Origin: Propionibacterium ruminifibrarum
Lineage (GTDB): Bacteria; Actinomycetota; Actinomycetes; Propionibacteriales; Propionibacteriaceae
Length of the DNA stretch: 32,000 bases
Direction: 5' to 3'
NCBI RefSeq assembly: GCF_900289195.1
Contig: NZ_OMOH01000005.1
Span: forward strand, 150,001-182,000
The number at the start of each line of letters is the position of its first letter. The stretch's first letter is position 1. Both the position numbers and the translations under genes were made by a program. Positions 1-31,136 of this stretch are shown piece by piece. The notes below the pieces were generated by a model, which had not been told where the DNA came from, searched no databases, and saw only the letters and a list, made by a program, of their open reading frames with translations.

Positions 1-131
1 CGGACGTCGCGCCACCTGCCAACTCGGCAGCGATGGACGAGGCAGAAGAGGATTTCCTTACCTTGTTGAGGAAACTCGAGTCTAACCAGATCACCCCCGA
101 ACAGGCCATCGGCAAGGGAGAAGTCAAGTGA
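1..131 (+). CDS. 3' end (last ~42 codons) of an upstream ORF truncated by the window edge; acidic helical tail, possibly the docking tail of a preceding PKS/NRPS-type subunit
   Basis: The frame starting at position 3 reads DVAPPANSAAMDEAEEDFLTLLRKLESNQITPEQAIGKGEVK, then TGA at 129-131. This TGA overlaps the GTG start (128-130) of the PKS (GTGA coupling). No catalytic motif is visible, so the product is inferred from context only. Confidence 0.5.
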   Translation, partial: DVAPPANSAAMDEAEEDFLTLLRKLESNQITPEQAIGKGEVK

Positions 132-3100
132 GTACGGATTTTCGTCATGAGCTGATGGACATGGTGTATAGAGGAGAGATCAGCGCTGAACAGGCTGCTG
201 CTATGTTGCCACGGGCCGGGAAACCATTGCCAGCGAGAAGCGGCGAGGACGTCGCGGTCGTCGGGATGTCGGGACGTTTTCCGGGTGCAGACGATGTCGA
301 CGAATTCTGGCGGCTGATCGAGCAGCAACGCTCCGCCATCGTGGATGTGCGTTCCCGATGGCCGCAGATCGCGGAACTCCTCGACTCCGCCTCCCGCAGT
401 GGGCACGCCTACAGCCACTGGGGCGCCCTGATGAACAGCATCACCGACTTCGATCCGGCGTTCTTCGATCTGTCGCCTCGGCAGGCGCAGTTGATGGAAC
501 CGCGCCAGCGGTTGTTGCTCATGGAGGCCTGGCGTGCGATCGAGGAAGCTGGGTACTCTAGGGCTGAACTCGACGGTCGCAATTGCGGCGTATTCATCGG
601 CTGTGAGGGTAGCTCGGACTATTTCCACGACATGCGGTTCGACCGCATGGACGGAAATGTCGTGCTAGGACACTCGAATTCCGTACTGGCGGCGAGGCTC
701 TCATACTTCATGAATCTCACCGGCCCAACGATGAGCATCGACACGGCATGCTCGTCCTCATTGGTGGCCATCCACTTGGCGTGTCGTTCGCTTCTCGACG
801 GGACATGCGACATGGCCCTCACCGGTGGGGTCACGGTCATGTATTCCATGGCCGATCAACTGCTCCAGTCAGACATGGGCATGCTGTCGCCGACCGGACG
901 ATGCGCGACTTTCGACGTGGGCGCGGATGGCTTCGTGCCTGCAGAGGCAGCAGCCGTGCTGGTGCTGAAGAGGTTGTCGGACGCGGTCCGTGACGACGAC
1001 CACATCCATGGGATCATCCGCGCCACCGCCATCAACCAGGACGGCAAGACGAACGGCATCACAGCCCCCAGCGCACTGTCCCAGGAACGCTTGATCAGGG
1101 ATGCATGGCGGTCGGGACACGCAGACCTGTCGACAATGAGGTACATCGAGGCACATGGGACGGGAACGCCGCTGGGTGATCCGATCGAAGTCGACGCCTT
1201 GGTGCGGACCTATGGAGGACTGAGCGCCTCGGGGCGGATCGGTGTCGGGTCGGTCAAGACGAACGTTGGTCATGCCGGGGCAGCTTCGGGTGTCATGTCC
1301 ATGGTCAAGGTCCTCATGGCGATGAGGCACGGTGACATCCCCGCGAGCATCAATCTCACAGAGGTCAACCCCCGTATTCGACTGGAAGGCTCCAGTCTGC
1401 ACATTGTCAGAGACCTGGAGCCCCTGTACCTGGATGATGGGGAGGCTACCGTCGCGGTCAGCTCCTTCGGCTACAGCGGGACGAACGCCCACATCATCGT
1501 CGAGTCAGCGAGACATCTTGCCACCCCCGTGAACGGGGGTGGTCTGGAGGCTCCCGATTTGCCGTTGACGTTGTTTCTTTCCGCAGCCTCTGAGCAGGCA
1601 CTTCTGGACCTGTGCTCCGCGTATGACCGGTGGTTGGCGACGCACGGTGAGGGTTTAGATCTTCTCCAGCTGTGCATCCAGTCCTTGGTCACTAGGACCC
1701 AGATGCGGTACCGAGTGGCTGTCGAGTTCACCAACCTCGCCGAGTTGCAGGACGGCCTCCGGTGCGTTGACGGCTCTATGATCACCAGGGCCATGCGACA
1801 CGTCGACGCCCAGGACCTAGTCATTGTCGACCGACTGATCGCCGCTATGAAGCCGCCGAAGGGGGATCGCCACGGGCTGGCACGCCTGATGAACCGGCTG
1901 GTCACGACTTGGTCCCACGGAGTGGATGGTGACTACTTGGTGTTGCGTGCCTACACCGGGCGTCGGCTCAGTCTGCCCACTTACCGGTTCTCGCACGCGA
2001 CCTATGAGCTCGAATCGGACGACTTGGTCGCGGGAGAGCACGTCCGGGCGCTGCCGACCGGTGCGGACGCGCCTGTCTCCCCCCGGATACGTCGAACAGA
2101 TGACGGCTCCGGGTTTGAGTTCGAGATGTCCGGTGATGACTTCTACGTGCGTGACCACACACATGTCGTTCCTGCCGCGGTTCACTTGGAGATGATCGTG
2201 CAGGGTGCTGCGCATCTGGATCCTGATCGCCCGGTGACATCCATACGTAACGTCATGCTCATGCGTCACGTTGACGTGCCAGCCGGTGAAACTGTCACGG
2301 TCAGGTTGGACGTGGCGAGAATTGCCGACGACCGCATCCGGTTGGTCATCGGTTCGGGATACGGGCAGGATTACGGGCCATGCGTATCGGCCGAGGTCGT
2401 CTACGGAGACCGTGCCCGGGCCACTCCGCCCGGTGTGGCATCTCACGCCGACGCCTATCCCGAACCCGATGCAATTGCTGTTGGTGCCTACCGAGATTAT
2501 CTCGACCAGTGCAATGCCAGCGTGGGCCCGACCTTCCGAGGCGTCAGGACGCTCGCACTTGGGCCGGACGATGCGTTAGTGCACATGGACCCGAACGCCA
2601 GCGGGAATGATCTGAGTGGATTCATGCTCAATCCGACGCTGTTGGATGCTGGGTTCAGTGGCGCAGCGATCTGGGTGTGGGCAGCGCACCCGGAGGCCCA
2701 TGGTATCTACGTGCCGTTCTCGCTGGGGAGACTGGATCTGGTCAACCCATCGCTGCACCCGGTAGCCATTCGCATCCACCAAGCACGACCTGCCACCGGT
2801 GGTGACGTCCAGACTGTCGGATACAATCTTGATTACCTCTCGGACAGTGGCGACGTAGTCTGGCACATAGAGAATTTCTTCCTTCGCCGACTGGCGTCTC
2901 CGACGGTTGATGATCCATCTGATCTTGGCGTGTTGGCGGTGCGGGAGACCTGGCGCCGCAACCCAGGGCGAGCGTCCTGTGCCTCGGCACTGGTGGTGCT
3001 GAGTACCCTAGACAGACTGGGGCAGGCCCGTGAGATCGTCTCCGCCAACGGCGGCGCGCATGTCCTGATCAGCGTCGATGGATCCTGGAGCCCGGCCCAC

Positions 3101-6100
3101 GATGATGTGGTCTTCCTTGATGACCTCACCGAGGATGAACTGGCCGAGGCGCTGATTCCCGGCGTCGATTCTGATCTTGCAGTAGTGGCCCTCCCGATGC
3201 GTCCTCGGGTTGGTGGGGACCCGGCGCCAGGGCAGCAGACCTCCTGTGTTCTGCGTGTCGTCAGGAATCTCTTGAAGAACCAGCCGAACAGAATCACCGA
3301 CGTCATCACCACGACCTACGGTGATCCCGCCGAACTTGCCCTGGCAGGCTTCCTACGTACCATGCATGTCGAGAACTCCTGCTATCGTGGCCACGTTCTT
3401 CGCGCCGACGCCGACGATCTCGTCACGGCAGTGTGTGACGAGCTGGGGAACGCCAGCGCGTCGAGCGAGGTACAGCGCCGCGACGGTGTGCGGTACGAAC
3501 TGACCCCGCAGATTGCCCCAGACTTCCATGTTCGTCCGGAGGCCGAGGACCGCATCCGGGGCGGCGCTTTCCTCATCACAGGAGGAACCGGTGCGCTCGG
3601 CATGGTCCTCACCCGACATCTGCTCGATCACGGGGCCGATGTGGTGATCGTGAGCGGACGCTCCCATACGGTAGCATCCCGCATCGCCGAACCAGCCATG
3701 AACGCCAAGAGTGAATACCTCCAGTGGGATGTGAGCGGTACAGGACTGACAGCCGGAGTGACGGCGGACATCCGCCGAATCCTGTCCAAGCACGGCCACG
3801 ACGCCTTGACAGGCGTTTTCCATGCAGCGGGGGTCATTCACGATGGCGTGATCGCAGCCAAGGACGATGACGTCTTTCTGGCCACAGTCGCCCCCAAGAT
3901 GTGGGGCACTGACCATGTCATCGAAGTGGCTCGTGCCTGCGGCGCGGAGTTCGTCCTGCTCTTCTCGTCGACTGCAGCAGCCCTCGGCAACCCCGGCCAG
4001 TCTGACTATGCCTACGGAAATCGCTACATGGATGCGGTGGCGGCCAACCAGGACGAGGCATCCCTTCCGAAGATCCAGTCCGTGAACTGGACCATCTGGG
4101 CTGGCGACACCGGCATGACTGTCCCGAAGGCGCAGGCGCGGCTGATGGAGGAGCGCTTCGGCATCGTGCCCCTACCGGTGGACCAAGGGTTGTCGGTGCT
4201 CAATGCTGTGGTTGCATCAGGCGAGCGACGAGTGACGATCCTCTATGGACATCCCATGCTGATGCAGAAACGGCTGCTGGCAACCACCGAGCCGGAAGCC
4301 CTGGTAAGCATGTCCCTCCCCGCGAGGGAGGACACTGACCCCGCACTGGACGCCATGCTCGTGGCGGACTTGCGTGAAATCGTCGGAGTGGCCCTGCGGA
4401 TATCCCCCTCTGAGATCGATTTCGATGAGGATATGGCGCGCTTCGGATTCGACTCTATCTCTTTTTCTGGCTTGGCGAACACGCTTAACCAAAAATTCTC
4501 GCTCGACATGACCCCGGCAGTTTTTTTCAAGTATTCGAGCCTTGGTGAACTCAAGGACGACATGCTGGCGGAGTACCGGCAGGAACTCGAATCCCATTAC
4601 GCTCAGCAGGAGGCGTCTGACTGGACGCCGTCACAACTCTCTGATCACGGTACAGGAAACGTCGGGCAGCCTGCCCCGGCTTTCGCAGCGGCGAGGCGAT
4701 CGGCGGGCGTGCAACTCGCCGATGGCGCTCCCCTCCGGCCGCCCGACAACGAACCGATCGCCATCATCGGCATGTCTGCCCGGCTGCCGGGCTCGGATTC
4801 GATCGATGAATTTTGGGATCACCTGATGGCCGGAGATGATCTGATCAGCGAGATACCGGCTGACAGATGGGACTGGCGTGCCCACTACGGCGATACCAGC
4901 AAGGATAGGACGAAGACGCGATTTCACCACGGTGGTTTCATGAAGCGGATCGACACCTTCGACCCGTACTTCTTCGGCATCGCAGGGGTGGACGCGGAAG
5001 TCATGGATCCCCAGGAGCGGATGGTGCTCGAGGAGAGCTGGCATGCTCTCGAAGACGCGGGAATCGTGCCCGCTGCTCTGGCCGGCGGTGAGACGGGCGT
5101 GTTCGTGGGGGTCTCTACGGGCGACTACCAGGAACTGCTGATCCGGGACGCATACCCCAACATGCTAACCCAGACCATGATCCCGAACAGGGTCTCGTTC
5201 ACTCTCAACCTCCACGGTCCCAGCGAAGTGGTGGATACAGCCTGCTCGAGCACATTGGTCGCGTTGCACCGCGCTGCGTCAGCGATTCGATCGGGACGAT
5301 GCGAGATGGCGCTTGCCGGCGGTGTGAACGTAATCTGCTCTCCCGGCATGTACGTGACCCAGGGGCGTATGAACATGTTGTCGCCGGACGGTCGATGCAA
5401 GACCTTTGATGCCGCAGCAGACGGTTACGTCCGGGGTGAGGGCTGCGGCATATTCGTCCTCAAATCTCTCAGCGCGGCCGAGCGTGATCACGATAGGATC
5501 CTAGGTGTCATCAGGGGTTCTGCAGTGAACCACGGCGGAGCTGCCACCAATTTGTTTGCCCCCAATGAGGCCGCCCAGGTGCAAGTCATCCGCCGTGCTC
5601 ACGAAGGGATCGGAATCGCTCCGGACGAGGTTGCCTATATCGAGGCACACGGAACCGGGACGGTGCTGGGCGATCCGATCGAAGTCAACGCCTTGATCGG
5701 TGCCTACCGTGAACTCTACGAGGCGGCGGGGCTCCGATTCGACGGAGACGCAGCTGACGTTTACCTTGGCGCCGTGAAGACCAACACGGGGCACTTAGAG
5801 GCGGCTGCTGCCGTGCCCGGCCTAGTGAAGATCCTGCGATCCTTCCAGGCGGGGTTCATACCCCGCAACATCCACTTCACATCCATGAACCCGTACCTCC
5901 GGTTGGCTGGCACCCCGATCAAGCTGGCTAATGATCCGATCGCCTGGGGCTCGATCACCGCCGATCCCCGAAGGCAGCGGCCGGTGGCGGCCATCAGTTC
6001 CTTTGGTATCGGGGGAGTGAACTGTCACCTTGTGCTGGAGGCGCCGCCGCGCGATCCCGACGTGTCACCGGTCCGGGCCGAAGGTCCGTTCGTGCTGCCG

Positions 6101-8101
6101 GTTTCGGCTCGTACCGAGTCTCAACTGGTGGACTACGTGAACGAAATCCGTGGCTTTGCGCTGGCGCATATGGCCAACGACTCTGGGAAGAACCTATTCG
6201 AGCAGGTCAGCGCACGCTGCATGCAACTGCTCGGCGTCACATCCGCCGACGAGTTGGACATGGGTGTCTCACTGATCGACTACGGCGTGAGCCCGACGGA
6301 TCTGGCTGGGATGGACGATGGCATAGTGGCTCTCGACCCCAGGATGACTCTGGCGGACGTGGCCGCCCTGCCAGCATGTAGCGCGTCGCATTCTCAGGGC
6401 AGCGGAGCGGATCTGCTTGCTGACGTGTGCGAGACTTTCCGCGTCGGAAGAACCAGGTTCAACAACAGAGTGGCTTTCGTCGTCAGGGATATTAAGGAAC
6501 TGGTGGATCAATGCGGCGCCCACTTGGCTGCAGAAGGCACCGCTGGCGTCCTTGAGCCGGACCCGGCGACACCGGTCGAGCGGCAGGCACGCGCGTGGGT
6601 CGCTGGCGATGATTCGGCCCTTCAACCGATCCCCGGAGCGAGCCGGATATCTGCTCCCTGCTATCCGTTCGAGGAGCAGCGCTTCTGGTACACGGATTAT
6701 CAGCTTGATTCCGGGTCGGCGCAGGGCCGCGCGACCGATGCCGAGGACGTCTGTCCAACCGCGGGGGCGCAGGCTGTCACCTCGTCGGTGTCGATGAGCG
6801 AGGGTGGCCTCGGGATCAGAAGCAGGGTCTTGGCAAGCCTGTGCCACGTACTAAAGATCCCCGCCGAGCAGGTGGCAGATGACGAGCCGTTTGCATCCTA
6901 CGGACTCGACTCGATCAAGCTGATCCAGTTCGCAGATGAGCTGGCGCGCCAACTCAACCACGATGTAGATCCGGTTGTCCTCCTCGACTATCCAAGTCTG
7001 GGAACCCTTGCCCAGTATTTCGAGGCGCTAGAGGTTGTCTACTCGGATGCCCCACACGGCCAGGAAATCGTGGCCACGTCGGGACAGACCGAGATGATGC
7101 CGCCACCTCTCGGTCACGGAGTCATCCTCAGGCTGCCGGAACTGATCGTTCTCCACGCTGCCAAGGAGTTCGACCGACAAATGATGGTTTCGTTCTGGCG
7201 CGAACTGGCCGATGGGGAGATCGGGCACATTGACATGGTTCCGTGCGGCCCGGACGGTCTCGAGGGAATGCGTCGTAAAGGGCTCTGTTATGTTCACTGC
7301 CTCACCAGAGACGCTAAAGGTAGGCTGGCCGAGGCTTGGGTCGGCGGGCAGGGAGAGGAAACACTGCTGATCATCAATGGGATCGGCGTCGCCCCTTCCT
7401 TCGCGTCCCCGCAGATTGCGGGGTTTGCTGGTGGGCGACGCATCGTGTGTCTATCGATGCCGGGAGTCGGTTTGACTCCGATGATCGACGATCTCTCATT
7501 GGCTAGCCTGGCAGAATGGGTGCTGTCGAGCCTTGACGCGCTGCAAATCGAGCGATTCGACGTGCTCGGGGTCTCTTGGGGCTCCCTGCTGGCCACGACA
7601 CTCGCGTGGACAGCGCCAAAACGAGTCCAGCGACTCGTCCTGGAGTCGCCGAACGCTGACATGGGCGAGGTGGAGAACGCGACGAACTATGTCGAGGATC
7701 TCGCCACGGTCATGAACGCGGACTTTGCGATGGCGACCGGATCCCACGACGAGGCCGCCAGACTGTTCACCGATGCCAAGTGCTTCGAGCTGAGAGCCTT
7801 CCTGCGATGGAGCGACTACTTCGCGGTGAACAGCCCGTCGCGTCACGAAGTGCTCTCGCTGTTACCTGAGATTCACCAGCCCGTGCTCGTGATCACCGGG
7901 GACCGGGACACGATCACTCCAGCGCGGGAGTCTGACCTTGTCGCCCTCTATCTGAAGAACGCGCGGGTTCACACGGTCTACGGGGCATCGCATCTTCCAT
8001 CCGCCACGCACCCGAATGAGTTCAACACGGTGGTCACCGCTTTCTTGTGCGATCCCGACGCCATGCTTGGGTTCGCATCTGGTGACCAAGTTCACGAATA
8101 G
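128..8101 (+). CDS. Type I modular polyketide synthase, AT-less (trans-AT type), 2657 aa: KS-DH(noncanonical)-KR-ACP-KS-ACP-alpha/beta-hydrolase
   Basis: Single uninterrupted ORF with a GTG start coupled to the upstream stop and TAG at 8099-8101. Two complete KS domains carry Cys-His-His triads. There are a Rossmann TGGTGALG KR, two carrier domains (GFDSIS, GLDSIK) and a C-terminal GVSWG hydrolase. No GHSxG/AFHS acyltransferase motif occurs anywhere, and the post-KS linkers are too short to hold an AT. Confidence 0.97.
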   Translation: MSTDFRHELMDMVYRGEISAEQAAAMLPRAGKPLPARSGEDVAVVGMSGRFPGADDVDEFWRLIEQQRSAIVDVRSRWPQIAELLDSASRSGHAYSHWGALMNSITDFDPAFFDLSPRQAQLMEPRQRLLLMEAWRAIEEAGYSRAELDGRNCGVFIGCEGSSDYFHDMRFDRMDGNVVLGHSNSVLAARLSYFMNLTGPTMSIDTACSSSLVAIHLACRSLLDGTCDMALTGGVTVMYSMADQLLQSDMGMLSPTGRCATFDVGADGFVPAEAAAVLVLKRLSDAVRDDDHIHGIIRATAINQDGKTNGITAPSALSQERLIRDAWRSGHADLSTMRYIEAHGTGTPLGDPIEVDALVRTYGGLSASGRIGVGSVKTNVGHAGAASGVMSMVKVLMAMRHGDIPASINLTEVNPRIRLEGSSLHIVRDLEPLYLDDGEATVAVSSFGYSGTNAHIIVESARHLATPVNGGGLEAPDLPLTLFLSAASEQALLDLCSAYDRWLATHGEGLDLLQLCIQSLVTRTQMRYRVAVEFTNLAELQDGLRCVDGSMITRAMRHVDAQDLVIVDRLIAAMKPPKGDRHGLARLMNRLVTTWSHGVDGDYLVLRAYTGRRLSLPTYRFSHATYELESDDLVAGEHVRALPTGADAPVSPRIRRTDDGSGFEFEMSGDDFYVRDHTHVVPAAVHLEMIVQGAAHLDPDRPVTSIRNVMLMRHVDVPAGETVTVRLDVARIADDRIRLVIGSGYGQDYGPCVSAEVVYGDRARATPPGVASHADAYPEPDAIAVGAYRDYLDQCNASVGPTFRGVRTLALGPDDALVHMDPNASGNDLSGFMLNPTLLDAGFSGAAIWVWAAHPEAHGIYVPFSLGRLDLVNPSLHPVAIRIHQARPATGGDVQTVGYNLDYLSDSGDVVWHIENFFLRRLASPTVDDPSDLGVLAVRETWRRNPGRASCASALVVLSTLDRLGQAREIVSANGGAHVLISVDGSWSPAHDDVVFLDDLTEDELAEALIPGVDSDLAVVALPMRPRVGGDPAPGQQTSCVLRVVRNLLKNQPNRITDVITTTYGDPAELALAGFLRTMHVENSCYRGHVLRADADDLVTAVCDELGNASASSEVQRRDGVRYELTPQIAPDFHVRPEAEDRIRGGAFLITGGTGALGMVLTRHLLDHGADVVIVSGRSHTVASRIAEPAMNAKSEYLQWDVSGTGLTAGVTADIRRILSKHGHDALTGVFHAAGVIHDGVIAAKDDDVFLATVAPKMWGTDHVIEVARACGAEFVLLFSSTAAALGNPGQSDYAYGNRYMDAVAANQDEASLPKIQSVNWTIWAGDTGMTVPKAQARLMEERFGIVPLPVDQGLSVLNAVVASGERRVTILYGHPMLMQKRLLATTEPEALVSMSLPAREDTDPALDAMLVADLREIVGVALRISPSEIDFDEDMARFGFDSISFSGLANTLNQKFSLDMTPAVFFKYSSLGELKDDMLAEYRQELESHYAQQEASDWTPSQLSDHGTGNVGQPAPAFAAARRSAGVQLADGAPLRPPDNEPIAIIGMSARLPGSDSIDEFWDHLMAGDDLISEIPADRWDWRAHYGDTSKDRTKTRFHHGGFMKRIDTFDPYFFGIAGVDAEVMDPQERMVLEESWHALEDAGIVPAALAGGETGVFVGVSTGDYQELLIRDAYPNMLTQTMIPNRVSFTLNLHGPSEVVDTACSSTLVALHRAASAIRSGRCEMALAGGVNVICSPGMYVTQGRMNMLSPDGRCKTFDAAADGYVRGEGCGIFVLKSLSAAERDHDRILGVIRGSAVNHGGAATNLFAPNEAAQVQVIRRAHEGIGIAPDEVAYIEAHGTGTVLGDPIEVNALIGAYRELYEAAGLRFDGDAADVYLGAVKTNTGHLEAAAAVPGLVKILRSFQAGFIPRNIHFTSMNPYLRLAGTPIKLANDPIAWGSITADPRRQRPVAAISSFGIGGVNCHLVLEAPPRDPDVSPVRAEGPFVLPVSARTESQLVDYVNEIRGFALAHMANDSGKNLFEQVSARCMQLLGVTSADELDMGVSLIDYGVSPTDLAGMDDGIVALDPRMTLADVAALPACSASHSQGSGADLLADVCETFRVGRTRFNNRVAFVVRDIKELVDQCGAHLAAEGTAGVLEPDPATPVERQARAWVAGDDSALQPIPGASRISAPCYPFEEQRFWYTDYQLDSGSAQGRATDAEDVCPTAGAQAVTSSVSMSEGGLGIRSRVLASLCHVLKIPAEQVADDEPFASYGLDSIKLIQFADELARQLNHDVDPVVLLDYPSLGTLAQYFEALEVVYSDAPHGQEIVATSGQTEMMPPPLGHGVILRLPELIVLHAAKEFDRQMMVSFWRELADGEIGHIDMVPCGPDGLEGMRRKGLCYVHCLTRDAKGRLAEAWVGGQGEETLLIINGIGVAPSFASPQIAGFAGGRRIVCLSMPGVGLTPMIDDLSLASLAEWVLSSLDALQIERFDVLGVSWGSLLATTLAWTAPKRVQRLVLESPNADMGEVENATNYVEDLATVMNADFAMATGSHDEAARLFTDAKCFELRAFLRWSDYFAVNSPSRHEVLSLLPEIHQPVLVITGDRDTITPARESDLVALYLKNARVHTVYGASHLPSATHPNEFNTVVTAFLCDPDAMLGFASGDQVHE
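248..1507 (+). other. PKS domain KS1 (ketosynthase, predicted condensation-competent)
   Basis: aa ~41-460. Begins DVAVVGMSGRFPGA. Active-site DTACSSS has Cys208 (TGC at 749-751). EAHGTGTPLGDPIE supplies His343 and KTNVGHAG supplies His382. Confidence 0.9.
2075..2902 (+). other. PKS domain: double-hotdog dehydratase-like (DH/PS-DH fold) with noncanonical catalytic motifs
   Basis: aa ~650-925. FYVRDHTHVVPAAVHLEM stands where HxxxGxxxxP is expected; His677 is present, but the Gly is missing and the spacing is 4 residues shorter. The GPTF (YGPxF-like) motif lies at aa 800-803. LLDAGFS occupies the DxxxQ/H position, with Asp840 present and Ser instead of Gln/His. Confidence 0.6.
3560..4132 (+). 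other. PKS domain KR (ketoreductase catalytic subdomain); the structural subdomain probably spans ~2930-3560
   Basis: aa ~1145-1335. NADPH site FLITGGTGALG. HAAGVIHDG lies at the LDD position, with Asp retained, which suggests B-type stereochemistry. The catalytic region is SSTAAALGNPGQSDYAYGNRYMDA (Tyr1294, Asn1298). Confidence 0.85.
4340..4573 (+). other. PKS domain ACP1
   Basis: aa ~1405-1482. LVADLREIVGVALRISPSEIDFDEDMARFGFDSISFSGLANTL, with the phosphopantetheine Ser1443 (TCT at 4454-4456). Confidence 0.9.
4748..6043 (+). other. PKS domain KS2 (ketosynthase, predicted condensation-competent)
   Basis: aa ~1541-1972. Begins EPIAIIGMSARLPGS. DTACSSTL has Cys1706 (TGC at 5243-5245). EAHGTGTVLGDPIE supplies His1841 and KTNTGHLE supplies His1889. 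Confidence 0.9.
6809..7033 (+). other. PKS domain ACP2
   Basis: aa ~2228-2302. IRSRVLASLCHVLKIPAEQVADDEPFASYGLDSIKLIQFADEL, with Ser2262 (TCG at 6911-6913). Confidence 0.9.
7280..8062 (+). other. PKS C-terminal alpha/beta-hydrolase-fold domain (putative chain-release domain, not a classical type I TE sequence pattern)
   Basis: aa ~2385-2645. Oxyanion-region LLIINGIG. Nucleophile elbow GVSWG with Ser2483 (TCT at 7574-7576). VLVITGDRDTITP supplies the acid residue and GASHLP supplies His2622. Confidence 0.8.
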
Positions 8102-8114
8102 GAGACGCACTGAT

Positions 8115-10238
8115 ATGGTGAACGCATCGACGAGGGTCCGGCTGCTGTGCGCGGTAAACGGTGATTTCTATTCCCACGTCGCCAGGGTCCTGGCCATCGC
8201 TTTGAGATTGCGGGAATATCCTCAATTTGACATCGCATTCTCCGGCAGTGGACGTTTCATGTCCCTCGTCGAGGACCAGGGGTTTGAGGTTCTGGTGACA
8301 GACCATCTCACCGTCGAGGAGGTGGTAGAGAAGTCGGATGAGCGTGGAATTCATTGGTACGACGACCCGGTCCGCCTTGACGCGCTGTTCGCTGCCGAAC
8401 AGGAGGTGTTCGACCGTTGGCGACCTGATGTGTGCCTGAGAGACAACTTCCGCGATCCGGCCAGCGTAGTTGCTCATATGCGCGGGGTCTTGGATATCAT
8501 GATTATCCAGGCTAGCCAGACCGACGCCTACCGGTTCGATTTCATTCCCATCAACTATGATCTGACCGGAGGGGAGGATCAGAAGGAGGCGATGCCAGGC
8601 CTGGTTAGGCTGGCACGCCGAAACGTCTATGCCCCGCTTTACGCAAAAGCCCGAGAGATGGGATTGTCCCCCGAATGCTGTCAGGATTTTGGCGCGGCGG
8701 CGGACTTGTATCTAGTTGCTGACAGCTATTGCCTCTTCCCGATTAAGCCGAGTTCTGGTCACTACGAGCACGTCGGGCCCTTGTGGTACATCAATGCCCA
8801 GGCCAGGCCAGTCTGGCTCGAGGAATTCAGTAACTCGCCTCTGGACCGTTTTCTTATTGCGACCGGATCCACAGGAACTACCAGTTTCGATGAGTTCTTC
8901 CGTCAAGTTGATCCCCAACACGACACATACGCGCTGGCTTTCACTGATGAGGTTCCCCCGCCTTTCTTCGGGGGGTCACCGTCGATCACGAGCACCGTTC
9001 TTCCGCATTGTGATCTGATCGTAAGCGACGGGGGACTTGGTGCCACCTATATGGCCCTCTATGCGGCTAAGCCTACAGTCGCGATCTTCGACCGGTTCGA
9101 ACAACAAGCCAATAGTAGAGCCTTGGAACGGCTTGGCGTGGGGATCGGTTTCGGGATCGGCACGTTGGGCCCCGATGACTTGGTGTGTGCAACGCAGACT
9201 CTCTTGCGGAACCCCGTGGTTGCCTCACAGCTACGGAAAGCTCAACAACGACTGCTCGACGAGCCGGAAGGTGCTCGCTTTGCGGCCATGCTGGTGGCGC
9301 GTGAGTGCGCCCGGCACGCGTCATGGGCTTCGGAGTTCTTGGCTCCCGTGATAGCGGATCTCGAAGAAGAATCCCGGAGCCATCGTCTGGGCGATGAACC
9401 ATGGGTTGCGGCATTAGTTGCAGATTCCTGCTGGTCGGCCGACGGGCGAGGTGACGCAGCGCTCCAGTTCTCCAGCTACCGTGCAGCGCCCAAAGCACCG
9501 GTACTCGACTTCAGGCTCGATGTCGGCCATGTGATAGCGATTGTCGCACAATCGACGGAGGTGGCTGATCGAATCGTAACGGGGCTCGAGGGACGGGGCG
9601 CGGCTGAGGAGGGAAGCGTGACCTTGTTTGGCACGCCGGTGCATGTTGGCGAAACCACGGTGGTGGAACTCGAGTCTCCGACATCGGGGGCACGCGTGGT
9701 CCAGCTCGGTTCCCAACCACTATTCCGGGATGGCCTGCTCACCGGGGCCGACACCGCTGATCGGCTTCTGCTGGTGGTGACCGACGATGACGTTCATGAT
9801 GAAAGGACACTCGCGGAGATCGCCCAGCAGATGGCTCAGTTGCGTGACGATGACACAGCGGTGCTGCTGGTCACAACATCTCCACGTCTCGCGGAAATGT
9901 CCGCCGACGAGGTGGTGCTGGTCGCCCCTGACCATGCTCTCGGACCGGCAGAATCCCGGCGCATCGTGGCTAGATACTGTCCAGGTAGCATCGTGTCCTG
10001 GCATCCGTCCGGGCCGATGCAGGTCGTCGTCCGACACGCGCTCGAGGGGCGTCCTGAGTTCATCGACACGTCCGGGAAGTCGGCCTGCATCACCGACGAC
10101 GTCGCCGGATTCATCAAGCAGCTCGAGATGGCTGGTGCGCGTCAAGGACTTGCATTGGACGAACTGACCATTCGTGCAGCGCATCTCGATGACGTCTACG
10201 CCCTTCTGTTCCCGCCCACGCAGGCAGGTGACCGATGA
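8115..10238 (+). CDS. Fusion protein: N-terminal GT-B (GT1/MGT-like) glycosyltransferase plus a C-terminal degenerate ABC-type ATPase (DrrA/ABC-2-like NBD with a DUF4162-like tail)
   Basis: ATG at 8115 lies 10 nt after AGGAG (8100-8104) and 13 nt after the PKS stop. The N-terminus RVRLLCAVNGDFYSHVARVLAIALRLRE..FDIAFSG is a GT-B N-lobe. The C-lobe signature is LPHCDLIVSDGGLGATYMALYAAKPTVAIFDRFEQQANSRALERLGVG. From aa ~480 (ORF-track numbering) the sequence aligns to ABC NBDs. GHVIAIVAQSTEVADRIVTGLEG replaces the Walker A segment GxxGxGKT/S. LLLVVTDDD and AVLLVTTSPRLAEMSADEVVLV stand for Walker B and the H-loop region. No LSGG signature is present. The tail LTIRAAHLDDVYALLF resembles the sLEDVFl ending of DrrA-type ATPases. 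Confidence 0.85.
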   Translation: MVNASTRVRLLCAVNGDFYSHVARVLAIALRLREYPQFDIAFSGSGRFMSLVEDQGFEVLVTDHLTVEEVVEKSDERGIHWYDDPVRLDALFAAEQEVFDRWRPDVCLRDNFRDPASVVAHMRGVLDIMIIQASQTDAYRFDFIPINYDLTGGEDQKEAMPGLVRLARRNVYAPLYAKAREMGLSPECCQDFGAAADLYLVADSYCLFPIKPSSGHYEHVGPLWYINAQARPVWLEEFSNSPLDRFLIATGSTGTTSFDEFFRQVDPQHDTYALAFTDEVPPPFFGGSPSITSTVLPHCDLIVSDGGLGATYMALYAAKPTVAIFDRFEQQANSRALERLGVGIGFGIGTLGPDDLVCATQTLLRNPVVASQLRKAQQRLLDEPEGARFAAMLVARECARHASWASEFLAPVIADLEEESRSHRLGDEPWVAALVADSCWSADGRGDAALQFSSYRAAPKAPVLDFRLDVGHVIAIVAQSTEVADRIVTGLEGRGAAEEGSVTLFGTPVHVGETTVVELESPTSGARVVQLGSQPLFRDGLLTGADTADRLLLVVTDDDVHDERTLAEIAQQMAQLRDDDTAVLLVTTSPRLAEMSADEVVLVAPDHALGPAESRRIVARYCPGSIVSWHPSGPMQVVVRHALEGRPEFIDTSGKSACITDDVAGFIKQLEMAGARQGLALDELTIRAAHLDDVYALLFPPTQAGDR

Positions 10239-11924: not shown

Positions 11925-11950
11925 TTATGGTGGTCCCGAGTAAAATGAGG

Positions 11951-11969
11951 CTCCATCGTGTCGGTGGAG
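11951..11969 (+). terminator. Short hairpin after the ligase gene (possible terminator or IS-end structure)
   Basis: CTCCATCG / CGGTGGAG forms an 8-bp stem (one G-U pair) with a 3-nt loop, 27 nt after the stop. There is no U tract. Confidence 0.25.
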
Positions 11970-12065
11970 CGATTAGGTCATCGTCAAGGCCTTGTCGATC
12001 TGGATGTGGATCTTAGCCTTGAAATCCAGCGGGTTAAAGCGTTCGATCTGATTCGTACCAGTTGA

Positions 12066-12331
12066 AAGATGATGACCGACCATGGGATTCTCCAATCCGT
12101 GGGCCGGATCGGTAGCTGCTTCGACAATGCCGCTGCCGAGTCCTTCAATGCGATCCTGAAGAACGAACTCGTGAACCGTAAGGTCTACCCGACCCGTCAG
12201 TACGCAGCCCAGGACGTGACAGCCTGGATCGAGTACGACTCGATCGCAAACGCCTCCACTCGGCCATCGATTACCAGACTCCCAACCAAGTCGATACCGA
12301 ATGGAGGCAACACCAGCAGACAGCAGCCTAA
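12066..12331 (+). mobile_element. IS3-family transposase (OrfB/integrase-core) C-terminal remnant, 5'-truncated and frameshifted (pseudogene)
   Basis: DHGILQSVGRIGSCFDNAAAESFNAILKNELVNRKVYPTRQYAAQDVTAWIEY matches the conserved ..G...S.G..G.C.DNA.AESF...LK.E. block of IS3 transposases. The expected continuation RKRLHSAIDYQTPNQVDTEWRQHQQTAA* is found only in the -1 frame from 12245 (TAA at 12329-12331). No N-terminal or DDE part is present. A possible right end ...CACTCCA lies near 12372. Confidence 0.75.
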
Positions 12332-12404
12332 ACCAACCATTAACCACTGTCCGAAAAACCTATATCACTCCAGAGTTTTGCATAACCCTCCTGGTTCTTC
12401 ATTG

Positions 12405-12535
12405 CTGAACGTCAAGCTATCCACCGCAGCACCTTCACCTCGGTGGCAAGGGCCGCAGTTCATCACTGGCTGGGACAAACGCAAACATCCATTCGTATGG
12501 ACAAAACCCTCGACAGAATCAACTGGAAAGGTAAG
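12405..12535 (+). mobile_element. IS630/Tc1-mariner-family transposase extreme C-terminal remnant (pseudogene fragment)
   Basis: QFITGWDKRKHPFVWTK (about 12456-12506) matches the conserved FI..WN....PF.WTK tail of IS630-family transposases. Nothing upstream resembles the catalytic domain. Confidence 0.55.
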
Positions 12536-12657
12536 TATGCCTCAACTACAGGATACACTTGGATCGTGTTCGCCTGCTCGCCTATGCTCTCTTGCGACGA
12601 CCGATCCCGTCCGGCCCACGACGTCCGGAACGGTTCCAGCACGTCAAGGAGACTCAG

Positions 12658-13194
12658 ATGACCTCTCGCCGAATCCCTCTTCTCGCCCGGCTCGGCCTGC
12701 CCGCCATCGCCCTGGCCCTTGTCACCGGCTGCGCACCCAGCGCCAGTACCGCGATGGTCATTGACGACGTGACGGTCTCCGAGAACCACCTCGACGCCCT
12801 CACCGAGGGGTGCTCCGAGGCCCTCGACATAGCCGGTCTCGGCGGCCAGTACCCAGACGGTGAGGTGCGCCGGAACGTCGCCTCCTGGGTCGCGCAGGGC
12901 CTCATGGCCGACGCCCTCATCGAGCGCGCCAACATCACCGTCTCCGACAGTGAGCTCCAGGAGGCCCGTGCCGGGCTGAGGAACTCCGAGCTGTTCACCA
13001 CCACCGCCAACTGCACCGACGCCTTCATGGGCATCGTCAAGCTCACCGCCTACGTCTCCATGGAGGGTGAGGCCACCGCTCTCGCCCAGGCCGCCGACGT
13101 CGAGGTCGAGATCAACCCCAGGTACGGCACCTGGGATCTCGACGAACTCACCATCGAGGGCACCGGTTCGCTGTCCTCACGCAGTGAGAGCTGA
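12658..13194 (+). CDS. Lipoprotein, SurA-N-terminal-domain-like (function uncertain)
   Basis: ATG at 12658 lies 8 nt after AAGGAG (12644-12649). The signal peptide has a lipobox: MTSRRIPLLARLGLPAIALALVTGC. The stop TGA (13192-13194) overlaps the mazG ATG by 1 nt. Confidence 0.8.
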   Translation: MTSRRIPLLARLGLPAIALALVTGCAPSASTAMVIDDVTVSENHLDALTEGCSEALDIAGLGGQYPDGEVRRNVASWVAQGLMADALIERANITVSDSELQEARAGLRNSELFTTTANCTDAFMGIVKLTAYVSMEGEATALAQAADVEVEINPRYGTWDLDELTIEGTGSLSSRSES

Positions 13195-13832
13195 TGGTCG
13201 CTGAGGACCCCGAACCCAGGGGCGCCCAGTTCGAGCGCCTCGTGCAGGTGATGGACCGGCTGCGGGTCGACTGCCCGTGGGATGCCGCGCAGACGCACCG
13301 CAGCCTCGTCAAGCACCTCATCGAGGAGTCCGCCGAACTGGTCGACGCCATCGAGACCGGCAGCGACGAGGACCTGCGCGAGGAACTCGGGGACGTCCTC
13401 ATGCAGGTGGTCTTCCACGCCAGGCTCGCCGAGGAGGACGGGCTCTTCACCATCGACGACGTCGCCGCCGCCATCGCCGACAAGCTGGTGCGGCGCCATC
13501 CCCACGTCTTCGCCGGCGAGGACACCCCGGACGACCTGGACACCCTCTGGGAGGTGCGCAAGCGCGCCGCCAAGCGCCGGGACTCCTGCCTGGACGGCAT
13601 CGCCGAGTCCCTGCCGACCCTGGCCCGTGCGGCGAAGACGGCCCAGCGCCTGGACAACGGGGGACCGGACCAGGTGCCGTTCGCCGACGAACCGATCACC
13701 GCCGAGGAGGCCGGTACACAAGTCCTTTTGCTGGTGCAAAGAGCCCAGGCGAGCGGCGTCGACATCGACCAAGCCGTTCGTGACGCCACCCGAGCCTGGG
13801 AGGACACTATCAGGGACGCTGAGAAATCCTAG
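13194..13832 (+). CDS. mazG: Nucleoside triphosphate pyrophosphohydrolase MazG
   Basis: FERLVQVMDRLRVDCPWDAAQTHRSLVKHLIEESAELVDAIE...LREELGDVLMQVVFHARLAEE...KLVRRHPHVF is the typical MazG EExxE/D motif context. The position upstream of eno matches actinobacterial synteny. Confidence 0.92.
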   Translation: MVAEDPEPRGAQFERLVQVMDRLRVDCPWDAAQTHRSLVKHLIEESAELVDAIETGSDEDLREELGDVLMQVVFHARLAEEDGLFTIDDVAAAIADKLVRRHPHVFAGEDTPDDLDTLWEVRKRAAKRRDSCLDGIAESLPTLARAAKTAQRLDNGGPDQVPFADEPITAEEAGTQVLLLVQRAQASGVDIDQAVRDATRAWEDTIRDAEKS

Positions 13833-13846
13833 GCGGGCCCGAGCCG

Positions 13847-13864
13847 GCGCACCGTCCGGTGCGC
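13847..13864 (+). terminator. Hairpin after mazG
   Basis: GCGCACC-GTCC-GGTGCGC, a 7-bp GC stem, lies 15 nt after the TAG. There is no U tract, which is common in high-GC actinobacteria. Confidence 0.35.
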
Positions 13865-13874
13865 GGACGCAGCC

Positions 13875-13935
13875 TTGACATTGTGTGAATTTGCTGATTT
13901 CGTTTAGTTATTCGCATATGCAAATGAAAGGAGGC
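13875..13935 (+). promoter_or_regulatory. AT-rich putative promoter/RBS region for the downstream lipoprotein gene
   Basis: A perfect TTGACA lies at 13875-13880 in a locally AT-rich stretch. The 8-bp palindrome GCATATGC lies at 13914-13921. The RBS AAAGGAGG (13927-13934) lies 5 nt before ATG 13940. No convincing -10 hexamer could be fixed. Confidence 0.35.
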
Positions 13936-13939
13936 TGCC

Positions 13940-14677: not shown

Positions 14678-14781
14678 ACCGCCGCCCTCATCGTCGGCCG
14701 CCCTCCGTCTCGCCTGATGAGCGCCCCAGGAACCATGGCTCGGGCCGGTGGTGAACCGATAGGATTGGCGCGCGAGAGTGA

Positions 14782-16119
<1,338 letters not shown>

Positions 16120-16164
16120 ATGTCCTGGACGGCCAGGTGCACTGACCTGACCGGCCCCTGATCC

Positions 16165-16194
16165 GGAGGGCGGCGCCCCACGGTGCCGCCCTCC
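16165..16194 (+). terminator. Strong GC hairpin downstream of eno
   Basis: GGAGGGCGGC (16165-16174) pairs perfectly with GCCGCCCTCC (16185-16194). The stem can extend by 3 more pairs around a 4-nt loop. There is no U tract. Confidence 0.5.
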
Positions 16195-16308
16195 GACCAT
16201 GCCCTGGACCGGTGCCCTGACTCGTGCCCCGGGCCACCCCGGAAGAACCGTGCGAACCCATGACAGGCGAGGCCGCCACCAAGGGGACGGGCCGGCCGCG
16301 GGCCTACA

Positions 16309-16965: not shown

Positions 16966-17018
16966 GCCCACCCCCGGCGCGTGCCGGTCCTTCGCTCGCG
17001 CCGTGGAAGAATTGAACC

Positions 17019-20914: not shown

Positions 20915-20982
20915 TCAATTCTTCCACGTCGTAGCCGCGGCGGGGATGCGCGCCGTCGGCGGCCGGCTGTTCGCCGGCAGGG

Positions 20983-30467: not shown

Positions 30468-31136
30468 ATGAAGATCGGTGTCGTGAGCGGCAGCATCCGC
30501 GAGGGCCGCGTGGGCGAGTCCATCTCCCGGTGGGTGCTTGCCGGGGCGAGGGCCCATGGCGGAGCCGACTTCGAGCTCATCGACCTGAGGTTCTTCGACC
30601 TTCCGCTCTTCACCGATGCACGTATGCCGATGGCCGCGGGGAAGAGATACGACAACCCCGTCGTCCAGGCCTGGAGCAACGCCATCGACAGGTGCCACGG
30701 TTTCATCATTGTGACACCCGAGTACAACCACTCCGTGCCGGGCGCCCTGAAGAACGCCGTCGATCACCTGGCGAACGAGTGGGTGGGCAAGCCGGTTGCC
30801 TTCATCGGCTATGGCCCCGATGGGGCCGTGCATGCGATCGAGCACTGGCGTCAGATCTTCAGCACCTTCGAGGCCAGGAGCGTCAGTGCTCAGTTGTCAA
30901 TCAATTCCCCCGCGGGGACGGGCGGCGGGAACGGATTCGCCCCGGATGAGCACCATGTCGGTGAACTGAACGACCTGCTGGACGTGCTCATCGACAGTGC
31001 CGCCGAGATCCCAGCCGGACACCGGCAATGGCGCATCGGGAACAGGTACGGTCCGTGCCCGCCCGTTGCCTGGTCCACGACCGCCGCGCAGGAGATGCCA
31101 GAACCCGCGCGTCGTCTCACGGGGTGCCGCACTTGA
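30468..31136 (+). CDS. NADPH-dependent FMN reductase family protein
   Basis: MKIGVVSGSIREGRVGESISRWV...GFIIVTPEYNHSVPGALKNAVDHL...KPVAFIGYG. GGGAGG lies 7 nt upstream of the start. The last ~40 aa are atypical, and the ORF overlaps msrA by 20 nt in convergent orientation. Confidence 0.85.
   Translation: MKIGVVSGSIREGRVGESISRWVLAGARAHGGADFELIDLRFFDLPLFTDARMPMAAGKRYDNPVVQAWSNAIDRCHGFIIVTPEYNHSVPGALKNAVDHLANEWVGKPVAFIGYGPDGAVHAIEHWRQIFSTFEARSVSAQLSINSPAGTGGGNGFAPDEHHVGELNDLLDVLIDSAAEIPAGHRQWRIGNRYGPCPPVAWSTTAAQEMPEPARRLTGCRT

Follow-up and report, generated by a model that had tools for sequence, protein, structure and literature searches.

Is the AT-less polyketide synthase (PKS) gene that stands at the left end of this stretch of Propionibacterium ruminifibrarum DNA a pathway in its own right, or part of a larger one? 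Here, the window denotes the whole stretch analysed, 32,000 nucleotides in length (Table 1), in which a first-pass annotation had seen a novel, compact PKS architecture. We propose that the gene very probably encodes the chain-terminating subunit of a multi-subunit trans-AT PKS on a horizontally acquired island. As the last member of a far larger, uncharacterised PKS assembly line, the encoded protein is an orphan within a known enzyme class and not a new compact design.

Table 1. Features of the PKS locus, with positions counted from the first nucleotide of the window.
Feature	Position	Strand	Basis or remark
Tail of upstream 2840-aa PKS subunit, last 42 codons and stop (...EQAIGKGEVK*)	3..131	+	Frame translation
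Terminal PKS subunit, dock-KS-LD-DH*-KR-ACP-KS-LD-ACP-hydrolase	128..8101	+	2657 aa, GTG start
KS1, aa 40-460, C208/H343/H382	245..1507	+	Pfam; motifs kept in 4 orthologs
Post-KS flanking subdomain 1, aa 461-640, without AT	1508..2047	+	KAsynt_C_assoc, CurL-like_PKS_C matches
DH-like domain, aa 650-940	2075..2947	+	Pfam; motif alignment
KR, aa 941-1340, catalytic part 1146-1325	2948..4147	+	Pfam; motifs
ACP1, aa 1421-1500, Ser1443 in GFDSI	4388..4627	+	Pfam; motifs
KS2, aa 1541-1965, C1706/H1841/H1889	4748..6022	+	Pfam; motifs; PDB ranking
Post-KS flanking region 2, aa 1966-2190, without AT	6023..6697	+	RhiE-like_linker match at 2097-2130
ACP2, aa 2225-2300, Ser2262 in GLDSI	6800..7027	+	Pfam; motifs
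Terminal alpha/beta-hydrolase, aa 2330-2657, conserved N-terminal extension	7115..8098	+	Abhydrolase_1
GT1-like domain, aa 1-430 of 707-aa protein	8115..9404	+	52-53% identical to syntenic relatives
Degenerate ABC ATPase remnant fused to GT-like domain	9405..10238	+	No ABC_tran match
Class I adenylate-forming enzyme (acyl-CoA-synthetase-like), 535 aa	10317..11924	+	62% identical to Brooklawnia ortholog
Insertion-sequence debris, right edge of island	11940..12560	.	rve_3; GC shift; synteny
Frameshifted fragment, C-terminal end of IS3 transposase	12069-12335		NF033516 profile positions 296-350 of 369

Domain architecture of the terminal subunit

A GGGAGAA Shine-Dalgarno sequence lies 7 nt 5' of the start codon, and exact or near-exact copies of the protein are found in P. 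ruminifibrarum (WP_147385394.1 / SPF68550.1, with exact protein matches to this species) and in rumen-type MAGs. Pfam searches of the 2657-aa protein returned two KS domains, PS-DH/PKS_DH_N, KR, two PP-binding domains and Abhydrolase_1, together with two post-KS linkers (KAsynt_C_assoc/CurL-like/RhiE-like), and thus bear out the order KS-DH*-KR-ACP-KS-ACP-hydrolase given in the first-pass annotation. The residue numbers it gave for the two intact KS triads are exact, and its post-KS signatures are correctly placed (LPTYRFSHATYE at 616 and CYPFEEQRFWY at 2178). Its claims that the protein lacks an AT and ends in something other than a classical TE also survived: Pfam gave no match to Acyl_transf_1 or to PF00975 (E<=0.01 for the latter) anywhere in the protein, and a motif search found none of GHSxG, AFHS, YASH, HAFH or GQGxQ there.

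The regions behind the KS domains, which had been taken for remnants left by AT excision, belong to the trans-AT type of flanking subdomain: they give RhiE-like linker matches, and the KS1 stretch at residues 5-595 aligns over the full length of the crystal constructs of the PksL/PksJ KS-linker (KS-LD) unit. Each KS has the Cys-His-His triad and is followed by such a short flanking subdomain, the modules contain KS and ACP but lack an AT, and their layout is split (see below), as in trans-AT modular type I PKSs. The best PDB matches of KS1 are trans-AT KS domains (7zma, PksL and PksJ). In rankings against PDB chains only, KS1 scored 391 bits with PksL versus about 335 with Lsd14/DEBS, and KS2 scored 461 bits with PksJ versus about 342 with DEBS. 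The top PDB match for KS1, KS2 and the DH-like domain is the trans-AT bimodule core deposited as 'Putative polyketide synthase' (7zma/7zmc/7zmf), presumably a Brevibacillus brevis enzyme, a likeness of single-domain structural homology only and not of an orthologous pathway. We rejected a cis-AT, iterative or PUFA-type PKS, since an AT is lacking and both the linkers and, in the PDB ranking, the KS domains resemble those of trans-AT systems.

The DH-like domain retains His677 and Asp840. Four residues are deleted after the catalytic His (RDHTHVVP versus HxxxGxxxxP), VGP stands where YGP is expected and DAGFS where DxxxQ/H is expected, so it had rightly been marked as divergent (DH*). This variant also occurs in the orthologs and in a distant homologue (P0159), and the best PDB matches of the domain are trans-AT DHs (7zmf, 5hst and PksJ). 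Such a divergent DH may fail to dehydrate. The KR has a B-type motif, HAAGVIHD (LRD in the orthologs), with K, S, Y and N present, and module 2 is devoid of any reductive domain, as had been stated.

Upstream subunits and the assembly line

The window opens within the tail of another PKS gene, whose TGA stop shares bases with the GTG start codon of the terminal subunit (GTGA) and whose ORF leaves the window at the left. Public assemblies of this contig place two coupled PKS genes, for proteins of 2840 and 3599 aa, immediately upstream. The public contig in which the 2840-aa gene is complete matches the window over 12,152 nt without a single mismatch. The 2840-aa subunit has the domains KR-ACP-KS-ACP-KS-KR-ACP and the 3599-aa subunit, of which 3332 aa were read, DH-KR-ACP-KS-DH-KR-ACP-KS-DH. 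No Acyl_transf_1 match occurs in the 2657-aa protein, the 2840-aa protein or the visible 3332-aa part of the third. The modules are split across the proteins: DH closes the 3599-aa subunit and KR-ACP opens the 2840-aa one, which in turn ends in KR-ACP, and the terminal subunit starts with a KS. Modules split between subunits in this way (DH / KR-ACP) are typical of trans-AT systems.

The assembly line has at least seven modules, with more PKS upstream, and the terminal subunit gives the last two; its substrate should therefore be a long, partly polyene chain and not a starter unit. The run of DH-KR modules in the upstream subunits suggests a polyene segment. About 9,100 PKS codons are intact, a reading frame of about 27 kb without a stop codon.

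Related clusters

The relatives of this cluster lie in Brooklawnia cerclae (GCA_011758645.1, JAAMOZ010000001.1:1349475-1377712; also GCA_039530465.1) and in two metagenomes, the Logan assemblies SRR29667955 and SRR5709926. Their terminal subunits have the same seven domains, are collinear with 99% of the P. ruminifibrarum protein, with BLASTP identities of 46-47% (about 50% when only aligned columns are counted), and have the DH* variant and the hydrolase triad in common with it. They too are preceded by a KR-ACP-KS-ACP-KS-KR-ACP subunit and by a DH-ending subunit of ~3,500-3,800 aa. In all three relatives the gene order is PKS, GT-like, ABC, AMP ligase and AT-ER, the last with GQGSQ/GHSLG. 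As first supposed, no characterised cluster comes near 70% identity, the best full-length matches being three orphans at the BLASTP identity just given.

No described product of Brooklawnia-type clusters was found in the literature, and searches on Brooklawnia or ruminifibrarum polyketides, trans-AT systems in Propionibacteriales or the rumen, and alpha/beta-hydrolase off-loading returned nothing relevant. Scans of genome contigs with the PKS protein and the GT-like alignment as queries found no further loci, a negative that is weak because Brooklawnia itself was not recovered; in metagenome contigs neither scan found any. The DH-tail fragments of the upstream subunits had no protein-database match.

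Among known systems we compared the bacillaene-type trans-AT PKS of Bacillus, which we take to comprise PksJ/L/M/N/R, the PksE AT-ER, the PksB MBL hydrolase and the PksC/D ATs. Both have AT-less modules split over subunits and a DH-KR run; the PksL/PksJ KS domains are among the best matches for KS1 and KS2, and the PksJ DH for the DH-like domain. Moreover, among the relatives of the window cluster there are an AT-ER of the PksE type and an MBL-AT fusion. However, the similarity is at the level of domains only (about 30-45%), there are no NRPS modules, no HCS cassette (in the part read) and no PF00975 TE, and the window cluster has a GT-like/ABC module and an acyl-CoA-synthetase-like gene.

Accessory genes, the missing AT and the state of the island

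The PKS genes apparently sit on a foreign island, no longer than ~59 kb and gained by horizontal transfer, which has a GC of 0.61 against 0.70 and a GC3 of 0.72 against 0.90 and adjoins mazG-eno-ftsB-ppx. At its right edge stands insertion-sequence (IS) debris, at the place where the relatives have a 137-aa gene, a flavodoxin-like gene (2/3 relatives) and the AT-ER. This debris has a weak blastn match to an integrase-core gene, and an IS630-like tail was read by eye near 12440-12520. An FMN_red gene at 30468..31136 was considered as the relatives' flavodoxin-like gene and ruled out, as it had no tblastn match.

The earlier statement that the window holds no AT gene was correct: with the relatives' AT-ER and MBL-AT as queries, tblastn gave no match in the 32 kb window or in 28.5 kb of the public contig. 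It weighs little, because the relatives' AT-ER lies downstream, at the place now occupied by IS scars. The AT is either in the ~28 kb of island further upstream or lost. Also missing from the window are a PPTase and an MBL-AT fusion, both of which one relative has.

Of the genes behind the PKS, the GT-like protein falls short of the family models (39.5 bits with TIGR01426 MGT, cutoff 260; 31.4 with PF06722, cutoff 31.7), and its profile match covers about 100 residues only (~290-400). Its sugar-nucleotide motif reads DGG...EQQANS versus HGG...ERQANA in the relatives. The fused ABC remnant has lost Walker A, Q-loop, LSGGQ, Walker B and H-loop and has a 56-column deletion; its identity is 25%, versus 78-89% among the relatives, which keep these motifs. 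The relatives also keep an intact GT::ABC-ATPase (or a separate ATPase) and an ABC2 permease gene, the latter absent from the window. The adenylate-forming enzyme belongs to its superfamily by PF00501 (242 bits) and PF13193 (35 bits), and since it misses the PRK06187 cutoff (344.5 bits, cutoff 476) the class assignment stops there. Its best PDB matches are the acyl-CoA synthetases FadD13 and FadD5, by which an OleC-like beta-lactone synthetase was ruled out.

Macrolide self-resistance can pair a GT1 with an ABC exporter (OleI/OleD with OleB; DrrAB-type ABC2 exporters). The GT-like protein here matches the nucleotide-sugar half of MGT/OleD-type GT1 enzymes, and in relatives it forms one protein with a DrrA-like ATPase, with the ABC2 permease gene next in line. 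Unlike those pairs, the ATPase in the window is dead and the permease gone, and sugar transfer is putative. As the ABC motifs are lost, the permease is gone and HGG has become DGG, the pathway may be crippled.

Is the cluster, then, a decaying and non-productive remnant, in which IS-mediated deletion followed transfer and the export module has eroded before the PKS became stop-ridden? We regard this as unlikely. The absence of the AT-ER, 137-aa, flavodoxin-like and permease genes from their syntenic positions, the IS fragments found there, the state of the ATPase half and the altered HGG motif all argue for it. Against it stand the uninterrupted PKS frame with its catalytic motifs all intact, levels of identity in the AMP ligase (62%) and GT-like domain (52%) comparable to the PKS value of about 50%, the presence of the same gene set in at least two independent assemblies, and the upstream part of the island, which could hold the AT. 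The SNPs between two assemblies, 5 synonymous and 4 nonsynonymous, lean to purifying selection without reaching significance (p=0.057); with no more than 9 SNPs in 22 kb, a dN/dS test has next to no power.

The terminal hydrolase and chain release

The catalytic triad of the terminal hydrolase, S2483 (GVSWG) / D2594 / H2622, is invariant across the family alignment, and its N-terminal extension of about 70 aa is family-specific. The predicted structure (pLDDT 80.5) and Foldseek confirm an alpha/beta-hydrolase fold. The best Foldseek matches are 3om8, C-C hydrolases and esterases, 3om8 is also the PDB sequence match, and no PKS TE is among the top 50 Foldseek matches of the model. By HMM, sequence and fold the nearest group is that of PcaD and the C-C hydrolases (3om8, CumD, BphD, MhpC, HsaD), with which it has the Ser-Asp-His triad and a cap-domain architecture in common; unlike them, it forms the end of a megasynthase, behind an ACP in the same chain, and carries the N-terminal extension. 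As the PcaD and C-C matches are far below cutoffs (93.5 bits with PcaD TIGR02427, cutoff 255.85) and at 17-25% identity (HMM, Foldseek), they indicate the fold class and not the reaction. In its sequence affinities, the domain resembles PcaD and C-C (meta-cleavage product) hydrolases and not the PF00975 thioesterases. In a stand-alone member of the hydrolase family (P0156), PF00975 does match over about 70 residues (28.2 bits versus a cutoff of 26.4), with no single stretch significant by itself.

The same ACP-hydrolase unit is C-terminal in other megasynthases of 1.2-7.5 thousand aa, and two further proteins have a seven-domain architecture identical to that of the P. ruminifibrarum subunit. 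Conserved terminal bimodules of this kind are present in Propionibacteriaceae; bacteria of about 31% GC have one too, at 32% identity. In the actinobacterial branch there are gene fusions, of hydrolase to GT at one locus and of GT to ATPase at two others.

In light of these affinities, what might the hydrolase do? Rather than being a plain thioesterase, it could act on the 3-oxoacyl chain by retro-Claisen (C-C) cleavage or an enol-lactone reaction, or hand the chain over to an acceptor that the adjacent GT-like protein provides. We consider this improbable. In favour of such a role, the family matches of the hydrolase are led by PcaD 3-oxoadipate enol-lactonase models and C-C hydrolases of meta-cleavage products and not by PKS TEs, the lack of a KR in module 2 predicts a beta-keto thioester as substrate, and in one relative (P0003) the hydrolase is fused directly to the GT-like domain. 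However, those matches speak for the fold class only, and the position right behind the terminal ACP is the standard site for a releasing hydrolase. The P0003 fusion, moreover, may stem from an assembly error of 1 nt, as just one nucleotide lies between the PKS stop and the GT-like start in Brooklawnia. Equally improbable is the broader proposal that the KS-DH*-KR-ACP-KS-ACP-hydrolase bimodule marks an undescribed polyketide family of anaerobes in which a PcaD/C-C-hydrolase-like domain releases the chain from 3-oxoacyl-ACP by a route such as enol-lactone formation or retro-Claisen cleavage and not by plain thioester hydrolysis, release being physically coupled in actinobacteria to the GT-like protein and an ABC exporter.

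Proposed biosynthetic route

That the gene encodes a self-contained, compact two-module trans-AT PKS, which joins a free starter and two units into a 3-keto-5-hydroxy (or 4,5-ene) product, is extremely improbable: only one complete PKS gene lies within the window, with the domains first described, but the ORF at the left edge is translationally coupled to it, the 2840-aa and 3599-aa genes stand directly upstream, a short docking-type helix and then a KS are found in place of any loading domain (AL, GNAT, KSQ or a leading ACP), and the orthologs at four other loci are likewise preceded by multi-module subunits. Of the earlier reading, the trans-AT modular type therefore stands and the compact enzyme on an unknown starter falls; the window starts 127 nt before the gene and so hid its upstream partners.

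As the chain-terminating subunit of a multi-subunit line, the protein would dock to the preceding subunit through short terminal helices and receive a long, partly unsaturated chain with a beta-hydroxyl from the previous KS-KR-ACP module. KS1 would add malonate loaded in trans, and the B-type KR, probably with the divergent DH, would turn the new beta-keto group into a D-hydroxyl or an E-enoyl. KS2 would extend the chain once more without reduction, giving a 3-oxoacyl-S-ACP, from which the fused Ser-Asp-His alpha/beta-hydrolase would free a beta-keto acid (and, by decarboxylation, a methyl ketone) or a lactone/pyrone. Two conserved accessory genes, for the GT1-like protein (translationally coupled) and for the acyl-CoA-synthetase-like enzyme, probably serve in product tailoring or self-protection. 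The intermediates are deduced from domain content only, and we infer the chemistry of each step, the release by hydrolysis or lactonisation and the continued availability of an AT (in the upstream ~28 kb or elsewhere in the genome).

Significance

Thus, we describe an orphan, apparently horizontally acquired trans-AT pathway added to a rumen Propionibacterium. To our knowledge, no trans-AT PKS product comes from this genus, and none was found in the literature. Our findings also define a small syntenic family, including Brooklawnia cerclae, with an unusual release domain. For genome mining, they illustrate that a window edge can disguise the last subunit of a large assembly line as a novel compact PKS, and that syntenic comparison locates the expected site of the AT and reveals accessory genes that the window copy has lost. 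If the pathway is active, a partly polyene beta-keto acid, methyl ketone or lactone could affect microbial interactions in the rumen; if it is inactive, the locus is a dated example of IS-driven cluster erosion.

Position in the assembly line

Here, we propose that the AT-less polyketide synthase (PKS) at the start of the window is the terminal subunit of a longer trans-AT assembly line, contributing the last two of at least seven predicted modules. Its gene, preceded by a ribosome-binding site (GGGAGAA) 7 nt before the GTG, was found by exact-protein look-up on a 59,188-nt Logan contig (run ERR1938110), which matches the window with 0 mismatches across a 12,152-nt overlap. On that contig, a PKS gene of 2840 aa (KR-ACP-KS-LD-ACP-KS-LD-KR-ACP, LD being the post-KS flanking subdomain) lies directly upstream, preceded in turn by one of 3599 aa (DH-KR-ACP-KS-DH-KR-ACP-KS-DH in the 3332 residues read). 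The module count follows because modules are divided between the proteins and because the 3599-aa protein starts inside a module, so that at least one further PKS gene precedes it. The first-pass annotation had described a two-module PKS and rated it highly for its compactness. That compactness is only apparent: the window edge hides the upstream genes and leaves only the tail of an ORF overlapping the start codon. The terminal subunit would receive a long chain that had earlier passed through three consecutive DH-KR modules, and these would be expected to yield a polyene-like segment.

The 2840-aa subunit also contains a stretch of ~230 aa (residues 1238-1475; 5195-5905 of the Logan contig) between a KS flanking subdomain and the next ACP that matches no Pfam family and resembles none of the terminal-subunit domains. 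The stretch may represent a domain, degenerate or of unknown type, within what is otherwise a "KS-ACP" module.

Features of the PKS region and adjoining core (window coordinates)
Feature	Position	Strand	Detail
Tail of upstream PKS gene	3..131		last 42 codons; TGA stop overlaps GTG start (GTGA)
Terminal PKS subunit	128..8101	+	2657 aa, GTG start
ABC-ATPase-derived C-terminal ~280 aa of 707-aa GT-like protein	9405-10238		reading frame still open
IS debris	about 11940-12560		at junction of 61% GC island and 70% GC core
"IERFN"-type fragment	near 11990-12060	minus	by eye
IS3 transposase fragment	12069-12335		C-terminal end, frameshifted
IS630-like tail (...GWDKRKHPFVWTK)	about 12440-12520		by eye only
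mazG-eno-ftsB(DivIC)-DUF501-ppx block	13194-18514		conserved actinobacterial housekeeping block, high-GC part
mazG	13194-13832
Enolase (eno)	14830-16119
ftsB/DivIC	16309-16965
DUF501	17019-17555
ppx/gppA	17552-18514

Domains and trans-AT affinity

Pfam recognises in the terminal subunit two KS, one KR and two PP-binding domains, a PKS dehydratase fold and a C-terminal Abhydrolase_1, along with two sets of post-KS linker families (KAsynt_C_assoc, CurL-like_PKS_C and RhiE-like_linker). Neither Acyl_transf_1 nor the PF00975 thioesterase has a Pfam match in the 2657 aa, and a motif scan of the whole protein found no GHSxG, GQGxQ, HAFH or YASH. Hence the earlier description of an AT-less KS-DH*-KR-ACP-KS-ACP-hydrolase (DH*, variant DH) stands, as do its residue numbers for the KS triads (C208/H343/H382 and C1706/H1841/H1889) and the post-KS signatures (LPTYRFSHATYE at 616, CYPFEEQRFWY at 2178). 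When the protein was aligned with its three closest full-length homologs, both KS triads, both ACP serines and the hydrolase Ser-Asp-His triad (S2483 in GVSWG, D2594, H2622) were conserved. In the KR, the NADPH-binding site and the catalytic K/S/Y/N are present, and the motif is of the B type (IHD in this protein, LRD in its relatives).

The DH-like domain retains the catalytic His and Asp but departs from the usual motifs, with a four-residue deletion past the His (RDHxHxLP vs HxxxGxxxxP), VGP in place of YGP, and DxGFS in place of DxxxQ/H. Since the identical variant occurs in a collinear protein of only 32% identity from a 31% GC organism, it is a family trait and not decay.

In a ranking against PDB chains, both KS domains matched best to trans-AT KS structures (7zma, PksL, PksJ and "AT-less polyketide synthase" entries), and the closest matches of the DH were trans-AT DHs. 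The alignment of KS1 with constructs that comprise a KS and its flanking subdomain extends to about residue 595, against an end near residue 500 for cis-AT modules. The system shares with known trans-AT PKSs the AT-less modules, the KS triads followed by short flanking subdomains and the division of modules between proteins, and probably works as they do.

Genomic setting

Exact look-up identified the window proteins as Propionibacterium ruminifibrarum entries SPF68550.1/WP_147385394.1 (PKS), SPF68551.1 (GT-like) and SPF68552.1 (AMP ligase); "Propionibacteriaceae bacterium" MAGs that are nearly identical encode them as well. GC content is 61% over the window's first 12 kb (GC3 0.65-0.72) and 70% over the remainder (GC3 about 0.90 in eno and ppx). 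Two independent assemblies (Logan contig ERR1938110_2 and JAWRJE010000086.1 of GCA_040307615.1) both stop ~47 kb upstream of window position 1, their ends no more than 12 nt apart. This suggests that a repeat, perhaps a complete IS, bounds the island on the left and that the island does not exceed ~59 kb. In P. australiense, MazG and DUF501 proteins fall into the same 90%-identity clusters as those of the window, but the PKS cluster has no member from this species, a hint that the island is absent there.

Elsewhere in the window, an NMT1/SsuA-type ABC uptake system (25681-28822: binding protein, permease, ATPase) is unrelated to the island. Several long ORFs in the high-GC core lack Pfam matches (20294-21637, 13904-14827, 20983-21954); some may be wrong-strand shadow ORFs, as both strands stay open in 70% GC DNA.

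Syntenic relatives and accessory genes

Only three full-length homologs of the terminal subunit were found, all orphans, in Brooklawnia cerclae and two Logan assemblies (46-47% BLASTP identity, 99% coverage; about 50% identity over aligned columns), and homologs ranked after them cover single domains only. The three loci are syntenic (3/3): a 3,500-3,800-aa subunit, a ~2,950-aa subunit and the terminal subunit are followed by a GT-like protein (in two loci fused to an ABC ATPase, in the third to the PKS), an ABC2 permease, an AMP ligase, a 137-aa protein, a flavodoxin-like protein (2/3 loci) and a free-standing AT-ER (Acyl_transf_1 + NMO; GQGSQ, GHSLG), with a PPTase and an MBL-AT fusion additionally in one locus. 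The encoded AT-ER confirms the trans-AT logic of the family.

Of this set, the window keeps the AMP ligase (62% identity) and the GT-like domain (52%). The permease gene is cleanly absent between 10238 and 10317, and IS debris stands in place of everything past the AMP ligase; tblastn found no trace of the missing genes in the window, the only match to the Brooklawnia cluster ABC proteins being the NMT1/SsuA-type ATPase (33-35% identity), a generic resemblance between ABC proteins. The C-terminal half of the 707-aa GT-like protein has lost Walker A, the Q-loop (56-column deletion), LSGGQ, Walker B and the H-loop, and is 25% identical to orthologs that share 78-89% among themselves; judging by these losses, it is a dead ABC ATPase. 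The GT-like protein matches the sugar-nucleotide half of GT1 enzymes only, under all cutoffs, and reads DGG where the motif is HGG. The AMP enzyme belongs to the generic adenylating enzymes of the acyl-CoA-synthetase type (nearest FadD13 and FadD5) and scores under the subfamily cutoff. Because the AT-ER position is now IS debris, with no tblastn trace, the AT would lie in the ~28 kb of island beyond the sequence read or elsewhere in the genome, or would have been lost.

Is the pathway then dead? The missing permease gene, the dead ATPase and the replaced AT-ER block are what decay would leave behind. However, the ~27 kb PKS reading frame remains open with all motifs intact, the same gene set occurs in a second, independent assembly, and SNPs over 22 kb (5 synonymous : 4 nonsynonymous) lean to constraint, not significantly (p=0.057). 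On balance, we regard decay as unlikely.

Terminal hydrolase and its probable role in chain release

The terminal hydrolase does not belong to the classical PKS TEs. Among HMMs it scores best with PcaD-type enol-lactonase models, far under cutoff, and among PDB sequences with 3om8. Its fold was modelled with AlphaFold from an 8-sequence alignment of the family (pLDDT 80.5, pTM 0.84), and Foldseek with this model against the PDB retrieved 3om8, meta-cleavage-product C-C hydrolases (CumD, BphD, DxnB2, MhpC, HsaD), esterases, PhaZ and BioH, with no PKS TE among the top 50 matches.

The close hydrolase family numbers only 8 representatives (E<1e-30) among 1.84 billion representative proteins, all of them carrier-protein-linked. 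Two further proteins (2665 and 2636 aa) have the same seven-domain architecture; others are stand-alone ACP-hydrolase (455-495 aa) or ACP-hydrolase-methyltransferase proteins (864-896 aa), an uncharacterised carrier-protein-linked release or tailoring unit. Remoter copies end megasynthases of 1.2-7.5 thousand aa. The hydrolase thus appears to be a recurrent but uncharacterised release domain.

Chain release is its most likely role, since it follows the last ACP with its triad intact. As module 2 has no KR, release would yield either a 3-oxo acid, which tends to decarboxylate and so give a methyl ketone, or a lactone/pyrone. Reactions of another kind, as in the fold neighbours, would be possible but are unsupported, and we think it improbable that the terminal bimodule and hydrolase represent a novel mode of release linked with glycosylation and export.

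A literature search found no description of a polyketide from Brooklawnia or P. ruminifibrarum, nor of this terminal-subunit architecture. The P. ruminifibrarum PKS is an orphan of a known trans-AT class; its release domain is less common, and part of its accessory set has eroded. Distant homologs on two 31-32% GC contigs (P0158 and P0159) have the same KS-DH*-KR-ACP-KS-ACP-hydrolase architecture, collinear over the full length at 32% identity, with no GT-like or AMP-ligase neighbours in those contexts. Given this recurrence, the terminal bimodule is far older than the Propionibacteriaceae cluster and far more widely distributed.
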